From: Microgenomates group bacterium
Lineage (GTDB): Bacteria; Patescibacteriota; Microgenomatia; UBA1400; MFAQ01
Reading direction: 5' to 3'
Assembly: GCA_049303575.1 (NCBI GenBank)
Contig: JBAQNH010000002.1
Span: 180,717 to 244,716 of the forward strand
DNA length: 64,000 nucleotides
The stretch's first letter is position 1, and the number at the start of each line of letters is the position of its first letter. Made by a program: the position numbers and the translations under genes. The notes beneath the pieces are model-generated. The model had not been told where the DNA came from. It ran no database searches and saw nothing but the letters and a program-made list of their open reading frames with translations. This document shows positions 2,805 to 36,323 of this stretch, one piece after another.

Positions 2805-3836
2805 TTAAACCGTCGCCACACTTGGGTCTGGCCTTAAACTTACTGGTTTTACCTCGCGAGGAGCAATTATCGCGGCTACCCCCACCATTGCCGCGTTGTC
2901 TCCACAATATCTAAGTTCCGGACAAAAGAATTTAACCCCCTCAACTCCTTCAACTGCCATTTTTAAACCTTCTCTCAGCTGTTTATTTGCTGCTACTCCA
3001 CCAGCCATCAGTACACTTTTTGGTTTGTACTTCTCCACCGCCATCATTGTTTTTTTAACTAATATCTCAATTACAGCTTCCGAAAACTCCCACGCCAACA
3101 TATCACGTGTTTCTTCTTCAACAGTCCCCAAAGCCGTGATTGTTTTGGAAATTGCCGCTTTCAGACCAGAAAAACTCATATCTAAATTATTTTCATTAAG
3201 AAGTGGTCTGGGTAATTTAAATTTTGTTCCAAATTTTTCTTTCATTTGCACCGTCACTCTTTCTACTGCCTTGGAAATCTCTGGCCCACCAGGATAGGGA
3301 AGACCCAATAATCTCGCCGCTTTATCAAAAGCTTCTCCGACAGCATCATCACGAGTTCCCCCAATCCACTCCCAGTCTTTAGTATTTTTCATCAATATCA
3401 AGTCGGTGTGTCCACCACTCACCACTAACCCTACCGCGGGGAACATCGGTACTTCGGTCGTTTTATCTTCGACTATCCAGTTGGCAAAAACATGTGCCGC
3501 CATGTGATTCACCGAGTAAAGTGGCTTCTTCCACGCCCAAGACAAAGCCTTTGCCGACTCTACCCCCACCAACAGACTCCCCATTAATCCTGGACCAAAA
3601 CTAACCGCAATCCCTTGAATTGAGTCTTTATTTTCTCCGACGGACTCGGTAACTACTGGAATTATACTTTTGATCTGTTCGCGTGCCGCCACCTCCGGTA
3701 CAATACCACCATATTTTTGGTGCATCAATACCGAGCTTGCCACCACACTATTAAGTATTTTTACTCCTCCTCCACAGTTTTCCACGACCGCCGCCGCCGT
3801 TTCGTCACAAGTACTTTCGATAGCTAAAACTTTCAT
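2805..3836 (-). CDS. tsaD: tRNA N6-adenosine threonylcarbamoyltransferase TsaD (Kae1/YgjD family)
   Basis: MKVLAIESTCDETAAAV..., GGHTDL, SFSGLK and ...AGGVAAN motifs typical of TsaD. Confidence 0.9.
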   Translation of the reverse strand: MKVLAIESTCDETAAAVVENCGGGVKILNSVVASSVLMHQKYGGIVPEVAAREQIKSIIPVVTESVGENKDSIQGIAVSFGPGLMGSLLVGVESAKALSWAWKKPLYSVNHMAAHVFANWIVEDKTTEVPMFPAVGLVVSGGHTDLILMKNTKDWEWIGGTRDDAVGEAFDKAARLLGLPYPGGPEISKAVERVTVQMKEKFGTKFKLPRPLLNENNLDMSFSGLKAAISKTITALGTVEEETRDMLAWEFSEAVIEILVKKTMMAVEKYKPKSVLMAGGVAANKQLREGLKMAVEGVEGVKFFCPELRYCGDNAAMVGVAAIIAPREVKPVSLRPDPSVATV

Positions 3837-9420: not shown

Positions 9421-12400
9421 ATGGCCTTGCCCAAATATTCGGTACTGCAGATTCGTCCTGCCAAAGACTCACTCACTGGTCAGGCTGCCTTTGTTGAGTT
9501 TTTAGCCTCGATCAAGTCTTCTCTCAAGGCTGGTTTTATGGATAGGCTTCTCAGCTCCTACGAAACCATTACCTTAGAAATCGCCAATCTTAGTCAAACC
9601 ACTTACTTCATTATTGCTTGTCCGGAACGTCTGGAACACCTTGTTCGTTCTCAAATTGCCGCCCAGTATCCCACGGCTCTCATTACCCCCATGAAAGACT
9701 ATCTCGTCGACTGGTTGTCTCATGGTCAGCCTCAAATAGGTCAGTTGGTGCTCTCATCTCCCTCCCAACTTCCCCTCAACGTCACCGAAGATGAAAAAGT
9801 TGACCAAATGACCGCCATTCTCGGTAGTCTCTCACGTATTCCGTCAGGTCAGGCTGCCGTAATCCAAATTTGTCTCTTCGCCGCCCCTGGAAACTGGCAA
9901 AAATCTCTTCGTAAATCGCTCGAGCCTAGACCGGTTGCCGAAGGTGAAAAATCCCAACCTAGTGCCCAAAAACCCTTCATTGAAAAAAAACTTGCCTATC
10001 AAGCCTTTGGCTGTGATATTCGCCTTGCCGCCATTTCCCAGAATGAATCGAGTTCCAGACAACTTCTTTCTCAAATTTCTGCCGCTTTCGGTACCTATTC
10101 TCTTTCCGAAGGGAATAGCTTTAAGCTCAAAGTTGTCAAACCCTCCTCTCATAAAAAACTAAAAGAAATGATTGTCGAGCGTTCGGCTAAGTACTCTAAT
10201 CAGTACCAATATCTAAACTACGCCGAAATAGCCGCCATTTATCACTTGCCTGGTGTAAATCTCGCCAACATCAAAGGTATCGCTTGGGGAAAGACCTTAA
10301 GAGGGGAGCCACCAGCAAATCTCCCCATCGCCGAAGATCTTTCTGAAGAAGAGAAGCAAGATATTAATTTCTTTGCTAAAACGGAATACAAAAACAGAAT
10401 TGTCTCCTTTGGTATGAAAAAGGGGGAGGATCGTCGTCGTCACGTATATATCTTGGGTAAATCCGGTACTGGTAAATCAACCCTCCTGTCCAACATGGCC
10501 ATCAACGATATTCGTCATGGTGAAGGCATGGCATTAGTCGATCCTCACGGGGACACCGCCGAGCATCTCTTAGACTACATCCCCTCAGACAGAATTAATG
10601 ACGTCGCCTACCTCGATCCCTCCGTCGTTGGCAAATCTTTTCATCTCAATCCTCTCTATGTTAAAAATCCGGCTTACTCGGAACTAGTCGCCTCGGGCAT
10701 AGTTTCTATTTTTAGTAAACTCTACGGCAACTCCTGGGGTCCTCGTCTGGAATATATTTTAAGAAACACTCTCCTTACTCTCGTTGGTAAGCCGGGAGCG
10801 ACCCTTCTCGATGTTCCTCGACTCCTTACTAACAAGCCCTTTAGAGAAGAATATCTTTTGGCGGTTCAGGATCCGGTTCTCCATAACTTCTGGCACGACG
10901 AATACGACAAATACTCAGAAAAATTCCAATCCGAGGCTATTTCTCCCATTTTAAATAAAGTTGGCCAGTTCATTACCTCACCCACGATTAGAGATATCAT
11001 CAGCCATCCTACTTCTACCGTCGATTTTGAAGATCTCATGAACAACGGCAAAATTATTATTCTCAATCTTCCCCAAGGCAAGATTGGTGAAGATAATGCC
11101 GCTCTCCTGGGAGCCATGTTTATTTCCCAAATTCAGATCGCCGCCATGAATCGTGCCAATATGGCCGAGACGGAGCGTAAAGACTTCTTTCTTTATGTCG
11201 ATGAGTTTCAAAACTTTGCCACCACCTCTTTTATAAAAATTCTTTCCGAAGCTCGTAAATATCGTCTTAACCTTATTCTTGCTAATCAATACACCGCCCA
11301 GCTTCCGATAGAAATTCAAGACGCTATTTTTGGTAATGCTGGCACTCTCATAAGCTTTGTCGTTGGTGCTGCTGATGCTAATCGTCTCATGAATGAACTG
11401 GGAAACTTCTACACCCAAGATGATCTCGTTGGTCTTGCTCGTTACCAAATCATCGTCAAAATTTCTGTCAACGCCTCCATTTCCAATCCTTTCTCGGCCA
11501 CGACACTACCCCTTCCGGAAAACAAAGATAACAGCCGTCAAAAAATTGTCGCGGCCAGCGAAGAACAATACTATCGTAAAACCGAGGCTCTCGACATGGC
11601 TCAAGCCTCAATTTATGCTCCCAGTGCACCCCCCAAACCCCGCTCCTATTCTCCAACCACTCCTTATCGACCTCAGCAACAAACACCCTCTTCCTCTATT
11701 AATAAAAATGAAACAATAAAACCAAGCCCAACAGTTTTTTCAAAAGAACCCTCTTTGGAAGAACTGGACAAAGACAGAAGTGAAGGTCTTCGCCCTAGTG
11801 TTGTTGGTTGTTTCTTAAACTCCGGCAAAATTCTTTTCGTTTACCAAAAAATTCATCAACTCTGGCAACTACCGCAAGGGGGAGTGGATAATCGCGAGAC
11901 CACAATCGACGCTTTCAAACGTGAAATGACTGAAGAACTAGGTGAAGATTTTGTTAAACAGTCAAGTTTCAAACCCACTTTTTTTTCTGCCGACAAAATT
12001 GAGTTTCCTCCTGACAAACAGGGTTTGCGAGAACTTAAACTCGACTCCGGTAATCCGGTCAAAATGAAAGGTAAAAAATATTATTTTCTCTACGCCACTT
12101 CTTCATCTACCGATTTGAAATTTCCTTCAGATGAAGAATATAATGATTTCAAATGGGCAAATTACAGTGAAGCTTTGGAGCTAGCAAAAACTTCTACCCA
12201 AGGAGGTAAGCTTAGAATTACAACATCAGCACTAGATATTTTAAAAAACAAAGGCCTTCTTATTTCCGGAACCAATATTAATAATCAAAGCAACAACAAT
12301 GGATCCAGATCAAACTCCAAACCTCCAACCCAACCCACTCCCATCCGACGCCCCCCAAAACCAGACGTCAACCCCATTTTCTTCCCCGATAAGTCAGGAG

Positions 12401-12552
12401 ATAACCCCACCAGCAGCTTGGAGCAGCGACCAGACTCCACCGTTAGTGTCCTCGACACCCCCGACGAGTCCGGAGCCAATCTCCCCGCCAATGTACCAGG
12501 AGATACCCCCAAAATCACCCCTCCCGGTCAAGGGAATTCCCTCATCGTCTAA
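9421..12552 (+). CDS. TraD/VirD4-like (FtsK/HerA-superfamily) ATPase fused to a C-terminal NUDIX hydrolase domain, ending in a Pro/Ser-rich tail
   Basis: Walker A YILGKSGTGKSTLL followed by ALVDPHGD. Walker B FLYVDEFQNF and ARKYRLNLILANQ are coupling-protein-like. After a P/S linker comes the Nudix box GGVDNRETTIDAFKREMTEELGE. The start was moved to ATG 9421 (MALPKYSVLQ...); the track ORF began at 9340 with a non-ATG codon. Confidence 0.7.
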   Translation: MALPKYSVLQIRPAKDSLTGQAAFVEFLASIKSSLKAGFMDRLLSSYETITLEIANLSQTTYFIIACPERLEHLVRSQIAAQYPTALITPMKDYLVDWLSHGQPQIGQLVLSSPSQLPLNVTEDEKVDQMTAILGSLSRIPSGQAAVIQICLFAAPGNWQKSLRKSLEPRPVAEGEKSQPSAQKPFIEKKLAYQAFGCDIRLAAISQNESSSRQLLSQISAAFGTYSLSEGNSFKLKVVKPSSHKKLKEMIVERSAKYSNQYQYLNYAEIAAIYHLPGVNLANIKGIAWGKTLRGEPPANLPIAEDLSEEEKQDINFFAKTEYKNRIVSFGMKKGEDRRRHVYILGKSGTGKSTLLSNMAINDIRHGEGMALVDPHGDTAEHLLDYIPSDRINDVAYLDPSVVGKSFHLNPLYVKNPAYSELVASGIVSIFSKLYGNSWGPRLEYILRNTLLTLVGKPGATLLDVPRLLTNKPFREEYLLAVQDPVLHNFWHDEYDKYSEKFQSEAISPILNKVGQFITSPTIRDIISHPTSTVDFEDLMNNGKIIILNLPQGKIGEDNAALLGAMFISQIQIAAMNRANMAETERKDFFLYVDEFQNFATTSFIKILSEARKYRLNLILANQYTAQLPIEIQDAIFGNAGTLISFVVGAADANRLMNELGNFYTQDDLVGLARYQIIVKISVNASISNPFSATTLPLPENKDNSRQKIVAASEEQYYRKTEALDMAQASIYAPSAPPKPRSYSPTTPYRPQQQTPSSSINKNETIKPSPTVFSKEPSLEELDKDRSEGLRPSVVGCFLNSGKILFVYQKIHQLWQLPQGGVDNRETTIDAFKREMTEELGEDFVKQSSFKPTFFSADKIEFPPDKQGLRELKLDSGNPVKMKGKKYYFLYATSSSTDLKFPSDEEYNDFKWANYSEALELAKTSTQGGKLRITTSALDILKNKGLLISGTNINNQSNNNGSRSNSKPPTQPTPIRRPPKPDVNPIFFPDKSGDNPTSSLEQRPDSTVSVLDTPDESGANLPANVPGDTPKITPPGQGNSLIV

Positions 12553-12877
12553 AAAGTCTGGTTTTCTAAAAACTTTCTTTATTGTTATAGCCCTCGTTCT
12601 TTTCGGCATCTTCATCGGTGTTGTTGCCGCCCGTTTTCTCCCTATGCCTGGGACGGAAGTTCCCGTTGTTACCCCAACTCCGATAATTACTGTTACTCCC
12701 TCTCTTACTCCGGAGGTTACCCCAGTCTCTACCGCTTCGGCTAACTTTATTTGTCCAGCAAATGGCTGGGTAGACTGTATGCCAATACTTGACGAGGCAA
12801 AAACAATCTCTTGTTCTGCTGAAGCTATGGCTTGGTACAAAGTCAACTGTCCCAATTTTCAGGGAGCAGCTCTCTAG
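12299..12877 (+). CDS. Membrane-anchored hypothetical protein (Pro-rich N-terminus, one TM, Cys-containing ectodomain). Start uncertain; the 5' part overlaps the previous gene in another frame.
   Basis: LKTFFIVIALVLFGIFIGVVAARF TM helix, with 4 Cys in the C-terminal domain. An alternative start is ATG 12491 (MYQEIPPK...). Confidence 0.4.
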   Translation: MDPDQTPNLQPNPLPSDAPQNQTSTPFSSPISQEITPPAAWSSDQTPPLVSSTPPTSPEPISPPMYQEIPPKSPLPVKGIPSSSKKSGFLKTFFIVIALVLFGIFIGVVAARFLPMPGTEVPVVTPTPIITVTPSLTPEVTPVSTASANFICPANGWVDCMPILDEAKTISCSAEAMAWYKVNCPNFQGAAL

Positions 12878-19350: not shown

Positions 19351-19422
19351 GGCCGGATGGTGAAGAGGAAACACGATTGTCTGCAAAACAATCATGCGAG
19401 GGTTCGATTCCCTCTCCGGCCT
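19351..19422 (+). tRNA. tRNA-Cys (anticodon GCA)
   Basis: Manual cloverleaf: acceptor GGCCGGA/TCCGGCC, U8, D-arm GTG-AAGAGGAAA-CAC, anticodon stem ATTGT/ACAAT with loop CTGCAAA (GCA), T-arm GAGGG-TTCGATT-CCCTC, discriminator U73 (a Cys identity element). CCA is not encoded. Confidence 0.8.
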
Positions 19423-19471
19423 CAATATTTCATGTTCGACATCTTGACATAATCTGCTATCATAGACACAA

Positions 19472-31169: not shown

Positions 31170-31853
31170 ATGCCCTTACTTTTTGTTATCCTTAGTCTCC
31201 TCGGACTCCTTCTTACCAAAAAGAAAATGACCATTGATCTATCACGTCTCGTTCATCGTTTTGGTGGTAGTCAACACTCCGCCATTATTGTTTGGAGTAT
31301 TATTTTTCTTCCGGGCACTATTGTTCATGAAATTTCCCATTTTCTTTTTGCTGCTCTTACCGGTGCCCGCACCGGTAAAGTAGAAATCTTTCCTGAGTAT
31401 TTGGAAGAAGAATTAGATGAAAAGAAAAACACACGAGTAACTCTAGGCTCCGTCCGAACTCAAAAGTTAAATCCCCTTCAGGGCTTCCTCGTCGGCATCG
31501 CCCCTTTTATTTCCGGTATGGCGCTACTCATCTGGTTAGCATCACTGCTCCAAACCAGTTATTACGCAGGCAACACCTGGATTCTTGTTTTAGAGGGATA
31601 TCTCTTCTTCACCATTGCCAACTCCTTCTTTCCTAGCTGGACGGATATTAAACAAACACTTCCTTTCGTAGTCATTTCCCTCGTCGTTGCTCTTCTTGCC
31701 TGGTATTTTGGTTTCCAAATTTTCCTCGACTCTAGCTCCTATGTTTGGACAGTTCTTGACGCTCTCTGGAAAGCTGTCTTAATCAGTATTTTCTTCAATC
31801 TTGCCATAGTTGGTATACTCTTCTTTCTACGTAAACTCTTTGAGAAAAAATAA
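31170..31853 (+). CDS. Hypothetical polytopic membrane protein with HExxH motif (putative zincin-like membrane metalloprotease)
   Basis: VHEISHFLFAALTG within a TM region, about 6 TM helices. Start set at ATG 31170. Confidence 0.45.
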   Translation: MPLLFVILSLLGLLLTKKKMTIDLSRLVHRFGGSQHSAIIVWSIIFLPGTIVHEISHFLFAALTGARTGKVEIFPEYLEEELDEKKNTRVTLGSVRTQKLNPLQGFLVGIAPFISGMALLIWLASLLQTSYYAGNTWILVLEGYLFFTIANSFFPSWTDIKQTLPFVVISLVVALLAWYFGFQIFLDSSSYVWTVLDALWKAVLISIFFNLAIVGILFFLRKLFEKK

Positions 31854-31917
31854 AAGCAAATCTTGATTTCGGGTAATATATGGTATTAAATGATATATAG
31901 ATAAACTTAATTCAACG

Positions 31918-32871
31918 ATGAATTCAATTCAGACTATTCAAGATACCTTCGATGTAAATGCAATTTATGCACATAAATTGCATAGTCTCACCAAAGGTGA
32001 TAATTATATTGAGGAAGTTAGAAGGACCATTAGCGAAAAACCAAAACCAATCGTCAAATGGGTCGGGGGAAAACGACAGTTATTGTCGCAATTTCGATTA
32101 TTAAACCTCTATCCCCCAAGTGGTTTCAACCCAAATAAATCTACATATTACGAACCGTTTGTTGGAGGCGCCGCCGTTTTTTTTGATCTTCTTCCAGAAA
32201 AAGCTTTCTTGTCAGATCTAAACAATGATCTAGTGATAACTTACAACGTAATAAAAAACGATGTTGATGAGCTGATCGATTCACTTAAAAAACACGTCTA
32301 TGAAAAAGAATATTTTCTTAGAGTTAGAAAACTCGACCCAAGGAAGCTATCGAAGATTGAAATTGCATCTCGTTTTATCTACTTAAATCGCACGTGTTTC
32401 AACGGTATGTATAGAGTAAACAAAAGTGGACAATTCAACGTTCCCTTCGGAAGATATTCAAACCCACAAATTTGTGATGAGCTCAATTTACGCAGGGCTT
32501 CAAAAGCTTTAAAAAACATTGAAATAAACTGTGAGGATTATAAAGAAGTATTAAATAAAGCCAAAAAAGGTGATTTTATTTATTTTGATCCACCATATTA
32601 CCCAATTAATTCCACGTCGTCATTTACTTCTTACACCCCTAACGCCTTTTTAGATAAAGAACAAATTGAGCTTCGGGAGACATTTGCACAGCTCAGCGAT
32701 AGAGGGTGTTACGTAATGCTTTCAAACTCAGACACTCCATTTATCAACAAAATATATTCTGAATTAAAAAATAAAGGAGTCAAAATAACAAAGATTCTAG
32801 CCGGAAGGGCAATCAACTCAAAGGCTTCGAGAAGAGGTAAAATTACCGAAGTGTTAATAACAAATTACTAA
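31918..32871 (+). CDS. Dam-family DNA N6-adenine methyltransferase (alpha class)
   Basis: KWVGGKRQLL (Dam motif I), PFVGGAAVFF, FIYFDPPYY (motif IV DPPY). It lies in an AT-rich block distinct from the flanks. Confidence 0.85.
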   Translation: MNSIQTIQDTFDVNAIYAHKLHSLTKGDNYIEEVRRTISEKPKPIVKWVGGKRQLLSQFRLLNLYPPSGFNPNKSTYYEPFVGGAAVFFDLLPEKAFLSDLNNDLVITYNVIKNDVDELIDSLKKHVYEKEYFLRVRKLDPRKLSKIEIASRFIYLNRTCFNGMYRVNKSGQFNVPFGRYSNPQICDELNLRRASKALKNIEINCEDYKEVLNKAKKGDFIYFDPPYYPINSTSSFTSYTPNAFLDKEQIELRETFAQLSDRGCYVMLSNSDTPFINKIYSELKNKGVKITKILAGRAINSKASRRGKITEVLITNY

Positions 32872-32884
32872 AAATACAAAATAA

Positions 32885-33406
32885 ATGATTACAAACGGAT
32901 TTGGAGGAGGAAATACAATTACCGGTTTAAACTTCGAAAAAGAAACAGACATACTTAGTTTGTTGAAAACTAAGAGAGACTACTCCGTTGCCGACAATAT
33001 TATTTATTTTAAAAAGAAAGAAGTAGCAAAAAGTTTCAAAAAGCATGCATTGTATCCTTTTTTAAAAACAAAAGGTGTCGATTATAAGAAAATAATTTCA
33101 AAAAAATTATTACCTGATGAAGCAATTTATGTAATTGTGAACAACACACTTTTTGTAATTGAAGTAAAGTTTCAAAAAGTCGCAGGGTCAGTCGATGAAA
33201 AATTACAAACATGTGACTTTAAAAGGAAGCAGTATGCAAAACTGATGGCACCATTAAATATTGAGGTTGAATATATCTATATTCTTAGCGATTGGTTTAG
33301 AAAATCAGAATACAAAGATGTGTTGGATTATATAATTTCAGTTGGCTGTCAGTATTATTTTCAATATCTACCATTACAAAAGTTGGGACTTCCTATCCCT
33401 GAATAA
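32885..33406 (+). CDS. Small PD-(D/E)XK nuclease-fold protein (candidate restriction endonuclease subunit)
   Basis: ...KGVDYKKIISKKLLPDEAIYVIVNNTLFVIEVKFQK...: a D...(D/E)-x-K arrangement like Hjc/REase catalytic cores. 173 aa. Confidence 0.45.
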   Translation: MITNGFGGGNTITGLNFEKETDILSLLKTKRDYSVADNIIYFKKKEVAKSFKKHALYPFLKTKGVDYKKIISKKLLPDEAIYVIVNNTLFVIEVKFQKVAGSVDEKLQTCDFKRKQYAKLMAPLNIEVEYIYILSDWFRKSEYKDVLDYIISVGCQYYFQYLPLQKLGLPIPE

Positions 33407-33431
33407 AGTCAGATTACTATTATTATCAGTA

Positions 33432-34190
33432 TTGATTAAAAAAGACATTGTACTTAATCCAGATGAGTTTGAATTGGAATGCACATCTGTGTGGGCATTC
33501 CCTCGAAGAGGAAATTGGGCAACACACACTTCTGACTGGCGAGGAAATTGGGCTCCAGAAGTAGCTAGAAATTTAATACTACGCTACACATCAGAAAATG
33601 ATTGGTTGCTTGATCCGATGGTGGGAGGTGGTACTTCCGCGATAGAAGCCAAGATTCTTAATAGACACATTATTTGCACGGATATTAACGAATTAGCTCT
33701 TATAAGAACAAAGAAATCGCTTGAATTTGATGCAAAAAACAATGCAGAGCAAAGGTTATATAAGTGTGATGCTCGAGACCTGAAAAAAATAAGTAACGGG
33801 AAAATTGACTTTGTATTAACCCATCCACCTTACGTTGATATCATCAAATACAGTGAAGGAAACATAGAAGAAGATCTTTCAAATATCCACGACTTAGATA
33901 TTTTCGCAAATGAAATGAAAAAAGTTGCAGATGAACTTTATAGGGTCCTTAAAAATGGAAAATACTGTGCAATTTTAATCGGTGATACTAGAAGAAATAA
34001 AATGTATCAACCCCTTGCCTTTAAGGTTATGGAAAGATTTATTAATGCCGGTTTTGTATTGAAAGAAGACATAATAAAAAGGCAGTTTAATTGCAAAGCA
34101 ACTGGGTTTTGGGTAAACAAATCAAAACTAAACAACTTCCTGTTAATTATGCACGAACATTTATTCGTATTTCAAAAACCTACTGTTTAG
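33432..34190 (+). CDS. SAM-dependent DNA methyltransferase (N6-adenine/N4-cytosine type; motif I before motif IV). Start uncertain: TTG 33432 or TTG 33342.
   Basis: Motif I LDPMVGGGTSAIEAKILNRHIICTDINE and motif IV FVLTHPPYVD. No in-frame ATG near the 5' end; the track ORF begins at TTG 33342 and would overlap the upstream gene by 64 nt. Confidence 0.6.
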   Translation: MIKKDIVLNPDEFELECTSVWAFPRRGNWATHTSDWRGNWAPEVARNLILRYTSENDWLLDPMVGGGTSAIEAKILNRHIICTDINELALIRTKKSLEFDAKNNAEQRLYKCDARDLKKISNGKIDFVLTHPPYVDIIKYSEGNIEEDLSNIHDLDIFANEMKKVADELYRVLKNGKYCAILIGDTRRNKMYQPLAFKVMERFINAGFVLKEDIIKRQFNCKATGFWVNKSKLNNFLLIMHEHLFVFQKPTV

Positions 34191-34194
34191 AAAA

Positions 34195-34647
34195 ATGAAT
34201 AAGCTGTTAACAGAAGATTTTGTCCAAAATAATATAATTAAATATCTTTCCAGAACTGGATGGAGTAAAAGCTTGAAATCGAAAACACTTAAGGAACACG
34301 GAGTTGATATTAAGGTCAGGAACAACAATTTTGCAAGATATTGGCTGATCGAAGTCAAGGGTGATGCAAGCGAAACAGCGAAATATCCTAGATCTCATAG
34401 AGAAGTAAACTTTAATCTCGCCTTGGGGCAAATTATCACCCGTATGCAATCGAACGGAACAAGGGGTTATAAATACAGGTATAAATATGGTGTGGGGTAC
34501 CCAACTTCATTTAAAAATCTAATTGTTCGAAGATTACCTTATGATGTGTGCGACAAACTAAATCTTTATATATTTTTAGTTGACGAAACTGGAGAAGTTG
34601 AGCTGCTCGATTGGAAAGGATTAAAGAAAATCCAATCTTCTCATTAG
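34195..34647 (+). CDS. Small Hjc-like PD-(D/E)XK nuclease-fold protein (candidate second restriction endonuclease subunit)
   Basis: ...LKEHGVDIKVRNNNFARYWLIEVKGD... closely resembles the Hjc/archaeal-resolvase and REase core (VDxx...IEVK). 150 aa. Confidence 0.45.
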   Translation: MNKLLTEDFVQNNIIKYLSRTGWSKSLKSKTLKEHGVDIKVRNNNFARYWLIEVKGDASETAKYPRSHREVNFNLALGQIITRMQSNGTRGYKYRYKYGVGYPTSFKNLIVRRLPYDVCDKLNLYIFLVDETGEVELLDWKGLKKIQSSH

Positions 34648-34661
34648 CAAAATCAATTTTA

Positions 34662-34689
34662 TTATTCCTTCACAACCTTTTTCTTAGCC
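34662..34689 (+). repeat. Imperfect direct repeat (28 nt) copying the 3' end of the zinc-ribbon gene; partner at 35147-35174
   Basis: TTATTCCTTCACAACCTTTTTCTTAGCC versus TTATTCTTTTACAACCTTCTTCTTAGCC (25/28 identical), with similarity extending about 15 nt further with an indel. Confidence 0.6.
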
Positions 34690-34904
34690 CCTTCTTTTTC
34701 TAAATTGTTCGCATACAACTTTTCCAAATGGTCACCGACAAACCTGGAAACAAATTTCTTGATACATAAATAAAATACTAATAATTTGCCCCTTTTTTCC
34801 GCAAAATTTGCTGGTTGTATTTTTGTTTTTAACAGCATAGGATTAAGGTGTAAAAAATAAAAAGGCCCCCTACAGGGAGCTCTTTAACAGAATAATGGTT
34901 TTGC

Positions 34905-34916
34905 TCTGAATAGCGC
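34905..34916 (+). repeat. 12-bp inverted repeat arm flanking the tRNA-like gene (partner 35015-35026)
   Basis: TCTGAATAGCGC ... GCGCTATTCAGA, perfect complement, 98 nt apart, enclosing the tRNA-like sequence. Confidence 0.7.
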
Positions 34917-34927
34917 ACCCGTCATTA

Positions 34928-35001
34928 CCGGGTGTAGCTCAATTGGTTAGAGCAGCTGCCTATTAAGCAGAGCGTTGGGAGATCATTCCTCCCCACCCGG
35001 A
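34928..35001 (+). tRNA. tRNA-like gene with noncanonical anticodon loop (CUAUUAA, formal anticodon AUU) and noncanonical T-loop; possible pseudo- or specialised tRNA
   Basis: Acceptor CCGGGTG/CACCCGG (7 bp), U8-A9, canonical D-arm GCTC-AATTGGTTA-GAGC, anticodon stem GCTGC/GCAGA (one G.A mismatch) with loop CTATTAA, T-stem GGGAG/CTCCC with loop ATCATTC (not TTCRANN), discriminator A. Confidence 0.45.
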
Positions 35002-35146
35002 CACCAATTAAGTCGCGCTATTCAGAACAAAGCCATCATTCAATGTACTAATTAACTATATTGACATGGTACACCCAATGTCAAGTCATAGTTCGACGAG
35101 ATTCTAGCATTTATATCAAAATGTTTCAATAAAGGATATTAATGCC

Positions 35147-35785
35147 TTATTCTTTTACAACCTTCTTCTTAGCCACTTTAGCCTTTTTAGGCTTAGCTAC
35201 TTCTTTTCCGGAAGTCATTTCAATAGTCTCAAGAATTTTTTCCGTCATATTCTTCGGTTCGGTAGGAGTCAAAAGCTTTATGATTTTGTCCAGTTTGGCG
35301 TTTAGTTCACTCAAATCCATATTTCCGGCTGCCGGTCTTTGGGAAGGAGCAAAAGATCTGGACTCACCTCTTCCACCGTCTTTTTTGGCAAAACAATCAC
35401 TACAAAGTACCGGTTTACCGTTTCTTGGTTCAAAAGGAACCTGACAATTGTCTCCACACTCATCACAAATAGCACTAAACATGGGTTTATCAAATCTGTT
35501 TCTGTCTCCAAACCCTCTGTCATTGCCTCTACTTTCGAATCTGTTTCCGCCTCTGGGTTCTTCGCCATTCATTTCACCAAAACACTTACTGCAGAAAACT
35601 TCTTTTCTACCATTAGGCTTGAAAGGAACCTGGCAACTGGAACCACATTTGGCGCACACGGCGTCAAACATTTCCTTTCGCTCGGAACCTCTGTCGTTTC
35701 CGCCTCTTGAGCCGAAACTACCCTCTCTTGGGCTGTAATACTGGCTTCTACTGTCTCCACTTCCACCTCGGTTAAAATATGTCAT
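35147..35785 (-). CDS. Protein with two CxxC-x17-CxxC zinc-ribbon repeats, an RGG/Gly-Arg-rich N-terminus and a Lys-rich C-terminus
   Basis: Repeat 1 CAKCGSSCQVPFKPNGRKEVFCSKCF and repeat 2 CDECGDNCQVPFEPRNGKPVLCSDCF. N-terminal ...NRGGSGDSRSQYYSPREGSFGSRGGNDRGSERK..., C-terminal ...KPKKAKVAKKKVVKE. Confidence 0.6.
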   Translation of the reverse strand: MTYFNRGGSGDSRSQYYSPREGSFGSRGGNDRGSERKEMFDAVCAKCGSSCQVPFKPNGRKEVFCSKCFGEMNGEEPRGGNRFESRGNDRGFGDRNRFDKPMFSAICDECGDNCQVPFEPRNGKPVLCSDCFAKKDGGRGESRSFAPSQRPAAGNMDLSELNAKLDKIIKLLTPTEPKNMTEKILETIEMTSGKEVAKPKKAKVAKKKVVKE

Positions 35786-35912: not shown

Positions 35913-36323
35913 TTATTCACCTCGCCTTCCGTCGTTAATTGATAATTGATGAAGTATTTCACAGCAATAAGGCCCGTTTGCCATTAGTTTTTTCAGGCGC
36001 GATTTCAATTTTTCCATCTGAGTGATACGCTCGGTCAATAGACCCAAATACCCCTCAATCGTCTTTTGAACATACTCCTTTGAGTGTGAACAGTCTCCCT
36101 TTTCGCAACCAACAGTCAGTTTTTTAATCTCGCTCAAAGGCAACCCGAGATCTCTAGCATTCTTTATCAGCTTAATTTCTCCCAAATTTTCCTCACTATA
36201 AAATCTATACCCGTTTTCCTCCCGTGAAGGGCTTTCGATCACCCCTTGTTCTTCGTAAAATCGGATAGTTTTCGCCGGCAACCCGGTAATTTTTGCCACT
36301 TGTCCTATTGAATATTTGCTCAC
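35913..36323 (-). CDS. MerR-family transcriptional regulator with C-terminal Cys cluster (metal-sensor type, CueR/ZntR-like)
   Basis: N-terminal HTH (YSIGQVAKITGLPAKTIRFYEEQGVI...), dimerisation helix, and C-terminal cysteines (GCEKGDCSHS ... GPYCCE). GTG start at 36323. Confidence 0.8.
   Translation of the reverse strand: MSKYSIGQVAKITGLPAKTIRFYEEQGVIESPSREENGYRFYSEENLGEIKLIKNARDLGLPLSEIKKLTVGCEKGDCSHSKEYVQKTIEGYLGLLTERITQMEKLKSRLKKLMANGPYCCEILHQLSINDGRRGE

Follow-up and report, generated by a model that had tools for sequence, protein, structure and literature searches.

The window analysed here comprises 64,000 nucleotides (nt) of contig JBAQNH010000002.1 from a Microgenomates group bacterium (assembly GCA_049303575.1, positions 180,717 to 244,716 of the forward strand), and coordinates refer to the window unless another locus is named. 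At 34928-35001 on the plus strand the window contains a genuine, structurally intact transfer RNA (tRNA)-shaped gene with anticodon AUU, which is enclosed by a 27-nt inverted repeat and lies next to the 3' end of a zinc-ribbon gene. The locus fits best among mobile-element tRNAs that lie in genomic-island hot spots. In the explanation that we favour, and to which we attach a reasonable but far from overwhelming likelihood, a tRNA of phage or mobile-element type is the cargo of a module of ∼0.45 kb (34702-35146) that forms the latest layer in the zinc-ribbon hot spot. The significance of the locus lies in the presence of a fully formed AUU tRNA in a minimal-genome bacterium, while relatives of its kind recur in phage contigs. 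The features of the module and its borders are the following.

34662-34701, minus strand: left direct repeat, an orphan remnant of the zinc-ribbon 3' end that reads ...AKKKVVKE and stop
34702-34854: AT-rich spacer of the tRNA module
34855-34880, minus strand: intrinsic-terminator-like hairpin (34880-34865), then a T-run
34890-34916: left arm of the 27-nt inverted repeat
34917-34927, plus strand: 5' linker of 11 nt, unpaired in the predicted fold
34928-35001, plus strand: tRNA gene (ARAGORN, Rfam) with anticodon AUU, T-loop AUCAUUC, C1-G72 and A73, without encoded CCA
35002-35014, plus strand: 3' linker of 13 nt, unpaired in the predicted fold
35015-35041: right arm of the 27-nt inverted repeat
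35055-35084, minus strand: promoter-like site TTGACA-18-TATAGT, 11/12, facing the hairpin
35101-35129, minus strand: second promoter-like site TTGAAA-17-TAGAAT with an upstream TG, 10/12
35147-35178, minus strand: right direct repeat, the functional 3' end and stop codon of the zinc-ribbon gene
35147-35785, minus strand: zinc-ribbon gene (CxxC-x17-CxxC, 212 amino acids), its 3' end being the predicted recombination hot spot

ARAGORN, run on the window, calls a tRNA-Asn(att) at 34928-35002, the only other tRNA in the window being a normal tRNA-Cys. Similarly, an Rfam scan of the window returned two tRNA matches and nothing else; the match at 34928-35001 to RF00005 scores 54.8 bits (gathering score 29), covers model positions 1-71 and is found on the plus strand only. 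The cloverleaf contains stems of 7, 4, 5 and 5 pairs, which are of the Watson-Crick type throughout, save for G27.A43, and include no G-U pairs. Its D-arm is TAGCTCAATTGGTTAGAGC and its anticodon loop CUAUUAA. As read from the sequence, the tertiary scheme is also kept, including U8-A14, the A15-U48 Levitt pair, C13-G22-G46, A26.G44, G18/G19 with U55/C56, U33, A37 following U36, and G53-C61. The T54-A58 reverse-Hoogsteen pair, on the other hand, is replaced by A54/U58, a two-sided swap, and AUU is not among the standard bacterial anticodons. To our knowledge, A34 in bacteria is normally confined to tRNA-Arg(ACG), and in two-codon boxes it is not thought to serve bacterial decoding. Judged by A73, U35 and U36 the amino acid on the tRNA looks more Lys-like, while the anticodon formally corresponds to an Asn codon. 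The gene ends in A73, after which comes CACCA. A transfer-messenger RNA was ruled out, as ARAGORN reports none, and GOLLD, ROOL or a riboswitch in the block were ruled out by the absence of an Rfam match.

Genes with the same anticodon occur in viral contigs. A search of IMG/VR for the CUAUUAA loop combined with a canonical T-loop gave 29 stretches, 24 of which are called tRNA(att) by ARAGORN, and a control pattern with GUU gave at least 120 matches. All 15 viral tRNA(att) genes that were checked pass the Rfam model, with scores of 40-70 bits. They are no recent copies of neighbouring tRNAs (identity at most 0.72), and some are conserved over several contigs. The discriminator base, with the window tRNA counted, is A in 10 cases, G in 8 and U in 3, and many of the genes start with U1-A72 or C1-G72. 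The AUCAUUC T-loop is likewise present in viral tRNAs, namely those for Lys, Asn, Met, Ile and Arg. Among 612 unselected, non-redundant viral tRNAs (loci L031-L179) the 54/58 pair is T/A in 602 and A/T in 4, and no one-sided change is commoner than the A54/T58 swap, so that the pair appears to be compensated. Of the tRNAs found, the one nearest to that of the window is a tRNA-Lys(UUU) from a viral contig, which has the same T-loop and is 85% identical over 62 nt (0.75 overall); identity to any viral tRNA(att) found is at most 0.69. Literature searches gave no paper on the A54/U58 swap, none on AUU anticodons of bacteria or phages, and none that treats viral tRNA(att) genes as a class.

Three viral tRNA(att) genes are enclosed by leader-trailer helices, as is the tRNA of the window. 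Flanking repeats were measured by an ungapped repeat score, which is 18 for the window tRNA and at most 12 for the 833 viral tRNAs that were scored alike. A score of at least 9 is reached by 3 of 21 viral tRNA(att) genes and by 13 of 812 other viral tRNAs (p = 0.006). Flank duplex energies were of no use as a background, being inflated by tRNA arrays and by GC-rich flanks. One viral tRNA(att), at 3233-3306 (minus strand) of L057, lies inside a GOLLD match (RF02032, 2891-3379, minus strand, 179.5 bits). Two further observations concern the viral loci: several of the tRNA(att) genes in L031-L059 (IMG/VR) accompany a normal tRNA-Asn(GTT), and in L043 an int-alpA RNA match (RF02996, 11954-12019, minus strand, 53.8 bits) is situated ∼400 nt from a viral tRNA(att). 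When the block was compared by BLAST to a phage collection, with queries of 152 and 499 nt, generic tRNA similarity alone was obtained, and the 499-nt query gave no match in a plasmid collection.

The 27-nt arms that enclose the window tRNA are 89% complementary. Transcribed from the plus strand, the region is predicted to fold into a single long helix with the cloverleaf at its tip (-63.6 kcal/mol, z = -6.55 versus shuffles). A first-pass annotation, made from the letters of the stretch, had described a cloverleaf with anticodon AUU, the loop CUAUUAA and the present T-loop, flanked at 13 nt from each end by 12-bp inverted repeats. The cloverleaf is upheld by the ARAGORN call and the Rfam score, so that covariance models do not treat the region as background. 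Perfect 12-mers are indeed present at 34905-34916 and 35015-35026, although they are the core of the longer arms, and the spacing holds on the 3' side only. The features that had been called noncanonical are not peculiar to this gene either, since AUU occurs in at least 24 viral tRNA genes and the A54/U58 swap in several viral isotypes. Nor is the idea of a small mobile unit with the behaviour of a miniature inverted-repeat transposable element (MITE) borne out: neither the 64 kb of the window nor 182 fetched loci nor IMG/VR yielded a further copy of the repeat when searched by its 12-mer core.

This absence of a second copy also bears on a MITE-like reading, in which a non-autonomous transposon of 152 bp, with terminal repeats of 27 bp, would by chance have a tRNA-derived sequence as its core. 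Correia-type elements are similar in size and in terminal repeats. However, the outer flanks of the arms (...TTTAACA and AATGTAC...) show no clear target-site duplication and the core is a complete, high-scoring tRNA instead of a fragment. We regard this reading as highly improbable. The architecture of the hairpin, a long terminal stem bearing a tRNA-like domain, is also that of bacterial YrlA, in which a long closing stem is combined with a tRNA-shaped domain, and the transcript could in principle be a Y-RNA-type or other scaffold RNA, of which the stem and tRNA mimic bind a protein partner. Yet no YrlA or Y-RNA match was obtained even at E ≤ 10, and no gene for a TROVE/Rsr protein is present among the window open reading frames (ORFs) of at least 300 amino acids. 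Moreover, unlike in YrlA, the anticodon arm is of full length, and single-stranded linkers of 11 and 13 nt separate the stem from the acceptor. A scaffold RNA is thus hardly credible.

The classification of the locus as an island hot spot is based on its borders. A direct repeat of 32 nt with 28/32 matches connects 34662-34693 with 35147-35178, at a spacing of 485 nt; the two copies are found by BLAST inside the window with E = 1.4e-5, and they sit in lysine-rich, low-complexity sequence. The repeat is independently confirmed by the related locus L180, of which nucleotides 11326-11347 are identical to window 34661-34682 at 22/22 positions and at the same junction. In L180-L182 the same R-M (restriction-modification) module occupies the same site, and is followed by the 22-nt junction remnant, a second zinc-ribbon remnant of ∼78 nt, and the real gene end. 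Of the modules between the remnants in L180, one holds ORFs of 80 and 57 amino acids and another a S-adenosylmethionine (SAM) riboswitch and a 146-amino-acid gene; no tRNA is found in them. Because L180-L182 show the same junction with nested remnants, the direct repeat is a junction scar between successively acquired modules, and the 3' end of the zinc-ribbon gene is, on the evidence of these sequence comparisons, a recombination hot spot with layered modules. The locus thereby documents the 3' end of a protein gene as a layered acquisition hot spot in Patescibacteria, which are poorly known for mobile-element biology. The riboswitch of L180 (RF00162, 12191-12289, plus strand) scores 46.1 bits against a threshold of 44.4, and the gene that follows it lies at 12355-12795 (plus strand).

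Each incoming module would join at the zinc-ribbon 3' end, bring or regenerate a working end and displace the earlier end outward. By this layer logic, the tRNA module is the latest layer in the window. The remnants are ∼22, 40 and 78 nt long, and no integrase or recombinase is present in the inserted DNA or among the window ORFs of at least 300 amino acids. Since the remnants are unequal and an integrase is missing, homology-anchored recombination, in which incoming DNA would pair with the zinc-ribbon gene on one side and join illegitimately on the other, agrees with the data no less well than a site-specific integrase does. Direct repeats containing a gene 3' end and a presence/absence polymorphism are found, as for integrative elements, whereas a recombinase and a constant crossover point are not, and a third copy of the direct repeat is absent from the left end of the R-M module. 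In the zinc-ribbon gene of the window the last ∼50 alignment columns (35147-35200) are 96% identical to L182, whereas most of the gene reaches 56-76%; the mosaic signal is weak, as an internal segment is 90% identical to L182 too. This pattern weakly hints that the working 3' end may have been imported.

Comparison with related loci reveals the extent of the acquired DNA. In the closest non-identical relatives (L004-L007, L019 and L020), of which the zinc-ribbon gene is 87-91% identical in DNA, a convergent gene for a membrane protein of 226-228 amino acids lies 33-65 nt after the zinc-ribbon stop codon, with a terminator hairpin alone in between. With respect to these six relatives, window 31829-35146 (3.3 kb) is therefore extra, and the right-hand homology to them stops exactly at the zinc-ribbon stop codon. 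The more distant L008 and L009 (78% identity) show the same junction without R-M or tRNA modules, and contain MerR and DUF218 genes beyond the membrane-protein gene. In total, the tRNA block is missing from nine related loci and the whole 3.3-kb stretch from six. Over this region three Logan contigs (L001-L003) match the window with 100% identity.

These comparisons also refine what the first-pass annotation had proposed for the borders. Its imperfect direct repeat with 485-nt spacing exists, and the right copy is the true gene end; it is, however, 32 nt long with 28 matches, instead of 28 nt. The left copy is an orphan duplicate as claimed, given the reading frame of the remnant and the 22/22 match to the L180 junction. 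Integration into a gene's 3' end is retained in so far as acquired DNA is joined there, with two nested remnants in L180, whereas the unequal remnants and the lack of an integrase are at least as compatible with homology-anchored recombination as with a site-specific element. Insertion polymorphism is likewise seen, in the nine loci without the tRNA block. The polymorphic unit is, however, the 3.3 kb of R-M module plus tRNA block; the 485-bp block by itself is never seen present or absent alone. The other genes of the acquired stretch are as follows.

31858-34179, plus strand: three-gene R-M module (Pfam, NCBIfam)
31918-32871, plus strand: Dam-family methylase of the R-M module
32885-33406, plus strand: PD-(D/E)XK-like nuclease of the R-M module, 173 amino acids
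33432-34190, plus strand: N6/N4 methylase of the R-M module
34195-34647, plus strand: NOV_C/DUF3883-like gene (Pfam, NCBIfam), 150 amino acids, absent from the L180 version of the island

The GC content is 0.34 at 32-34 kb versus 0.40-0.46 elsewhere in the window. Identity of the R-M module (31858-34179) to L180 8973-11296 amounts to 86.6% and that of the flanking core genes to only 73-77%, a difference that points to transfer of the module between lineages. Homologues of the 150-amino-acid protein occur in varied mobile and defence contexts, and in none of five further contexts was a comparable tRNA block found. The spacer at 34702-34854 shows no similarity in BLAST searches against the fetched loci, phages and plasmids.

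From these data a possible course of expression can be outlined for the favoured explanation. The tRNA would be transcribed from the plus strand. Read-through from the R-M operon is the simplest way for this, and is possible because no plus-strand terminator lies between the operon and the tRNA. The 27-bp leader-trailer helix may then be cut by an enzyme of the RNase III type that is specific for double strands. The pre-tRNA set free in this way would have single-stranded tails of 11 and 13 nt and be matured by RNase P, 3' trimming and CCA addition, after which it would use A34 to read AAU. If phage tRNAs are a guide, the tRNA might act as a supplement or back-up for the host G34/Q34 tRNA-Asn (or U34 tRNA-Lys), possibly when the latter come under attack from anticodon nucleases with a specificity for the wobble base. 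Expression of AUU tRNAs, if it takes place, would be relevant to the ways in which mobile elements adjust or shield translation, for instance by escape from wobble-specific anticodon nucleases, and to the question whether there is deliberate miscoding.

Several observations weigh against this explanation. Good promoter and terminator sequences exist around the hairpin solely on the strand opposite to the tRNA, a concrete oddity of this repeat-bounded tRNA that the favoured explanation leaves unaccounted for and that the first-pass annotation had not noted. On the plus strand, no promoter of at least 10/12 was found upstream of the tRNA, the best site being 9/12, and no terminator was found downstream, none being detected at 34500-35300. 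The combination of C1-G72, A73, a missing CCA and A34 gives no clear aminoacylation identity, and an AAU reader charged with Lys would mistranslate. Furthermore, the window tRNA is the single instance of its exact type: a pattern of GAGC, the CUAUUAA loop and the AUCAUUC T-loop retrieved no tRNA from 185,579 species-representative GTDB genomes or from the JGI metagenomes. The matches that were obtained, one in GTDB and two in JGI, were discarded as coincidences in coding sequence. Nor is the excess of flanking repeats among viral tRNA(att) genes robust to the choice of threshold, since p is 0.11 when a score of at least 8 is required. Finally, the tRNA module carries no recombinase and none was found among the window ORFs of at least 300 amino acids, so that its mode of movement is inferred.

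The predicted start of the promoter-like site at 35055-35084 lies ∼7 nt outside the right arm, and the minus-strand terminator begins 9 nt beyond the left arm. Sites of at least 11/12 number four in the 64 kb, versus 1.9 expected by chance. A perfect palindrome, TTGACAT-N10-ATGTCAA (35061-35084), overlaps the -35 element and spacer of the promoter-like site in an operator-like layout. As the -35 element is part of the palindrome, the 11/12 match is somewhat less surprising. A minus-strand terminator is expected 3' of the zinc-ribbon gene in any case.

The opposite orientation of these signals would be explained if the gene were a silent relic, that is, a hitch-hiking mobile-element tRNA which has ceased to be expressed and which may, for example, be of the tRNA-Lys(UUU) type with U34 replaced by A. 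If the 27-nt repeats had recombined a single time, the 98-nt core would have been turned round, and the tRNA would now run antisense to the promoter and terminator that belong to it. Such an origin agrees with the position of promoter, predicted start and terminator, all opposite to the tRNA strand, with a closest relative that is a Lys(UUU) tRNA differing at one anticodon base, and with the singleton status of the gene in all databases searched. Against decay, all stems and tertiary pairs are intact and no lesion is obvious, as AUU recurs in viral tRNAs; the overall identity of 75% to the Lys tRNA does not support a recent point mutation from a known parent. We consider a silent relic unlikely, though worth serious consideration.

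Alternatively, the minus strand itself may encode a small RNA of ∼190 nt (from ∼35048 to 34855) that consists of the long hairpin and the terminator, of which the core is antisense to the tRNA and acts on it or on related tRNAs. The tight promoter-hairpin-terminator layout would suit such an RNA, as would the predicted minus-strand fold of -88.1 kcal/mol (z = -8.2), of which the helix has one mismatch, that of the plus strand having two. In contrast, all universally conserved bases of the tRNA are on the plus strand, where alone Rfam and ARAGORN find their matches; apart from noise due to terminators, the minus strand matches no Rfam family. The terminator, moreover, belongs there anyway for the zinc-ribbon gene, and we know of no precedent for an RNA of this kind. 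The chance that it exists is, in our estimate, small.

A third possibility shares the geometry of the silent relic and makes it reversible. If the 27-nt repeats are recombination sites, the core could flip the tRNA between sense (on) and antisense (off) with respect to a fixed promoter-terminator pair. Known invertons include repeats of 27 nt and cores of 98 nt within their size range; indeed, like invertons and Correia-type MITEs, the locus has imperfect inverted repeats of ∼27 bp around a core of ∼100 bp with a promoter-like edge. Unlike for these systems, no invertase, second orientation or second copy was found: neither the island nor the window ORFs of at least 300 amino acids include an invertase gene, and the core has a single orientation in four assemblies (the window and L001-L003). 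An invertible switch is accordingly given little credence. The same slight likelihood applies to its specific form as a phase-variable tRNA gene, in which one orientation expresses a wobble-A tRNA(AUU) and the orientation seen is the off state with the antisense strand transcribed. If true, the tRNA(AUU) would back-fill AAU decoding under attack on the host G34/Q34 tRNA, or recode AAU deliberately. In a broader form, which taken jointly we hold to be just as doubtful, AUU-anticodon tRNAs, often helix-enclosed, would be an unrecognised functional class of mobile-element tRNAs.

The favoured explanation, a mobile-element tRNA as module cargo, can be compared with several known systems. Phage tRNAs have been proposed or shown to evade tRNA-targeting defences via anticodon-loop changes (van den Berg 2023, PMC10264068; PMC11464382), and the tRNA-Lys of T5 acts against PARIS (PMC11464382). 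Like phage tRNAs, the window tRNA stands alone on mobile DNA and has a changed anticodon loop, and AUU and AUCAUUC both occur in viral contigs. Unlike them, it resides in a bacterial chromosome beside R-M genes and is changed at the wobble base itself, and an evaded nuclease was not identified. GOLLD RNAs sometimes carry tRNAs in a linker region (Kretsch 2025, PMC12286853). The window tRNA resembles these nested tRNAs in being complete and enclosed by a helix of a larger predicted transcript, but the enclosure is a single 27-bp helix and the window has no GOLLD or ROOL match. Genomic-island hot spots at gene 3' ends, such as tRNA or tmRNA islands and tycheposon-type arrays, hold nested partial copies of their target. 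Similarly, the modules at the zinc-ribbon site are each bounded by a leftover gene 3' end and their content varies by lineage, whereas the target is a protein gene, the remnants are unequal and no integrase is seen in any array.

Some minor observations concern the surroundings of the locus. An uncalled ORF of 58 codons (MLLKTK...KKKVVKE and stop; 34662-34838, minus strand) starts just past the minus-strand terminator and ends in the orphan remnant; it is probably no gene. A MerR-family gene at 35913-36323 is missing from that position in L004, L007 and L019. Two island proteins correspond to locus tags WA052_01515 and WA052_01525 (100% identical), and more distant relatives of the zinc-ribbon protein occur in Collierbacteria and other Patescibacteria. 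In L025 (10518-12086) a homologue of the 150-amino-acid protein is part of an element with a primase-polymerase and a large serine recombinase, and the recombinase gene adjoins a canonical tRNA-Asn(GTT). Patescibacteria tRNA-Asn genes are often interrupted by group I introns (PMC13011429). The tRNA-Cys(GCA) of the window (19351-19423, plus strand) likewise lacks an encoded CCA and is preceded, at a distance of 13 nt, by an extended -10 element, TGATAAAAT, with which no recognisable -35 element is associated.

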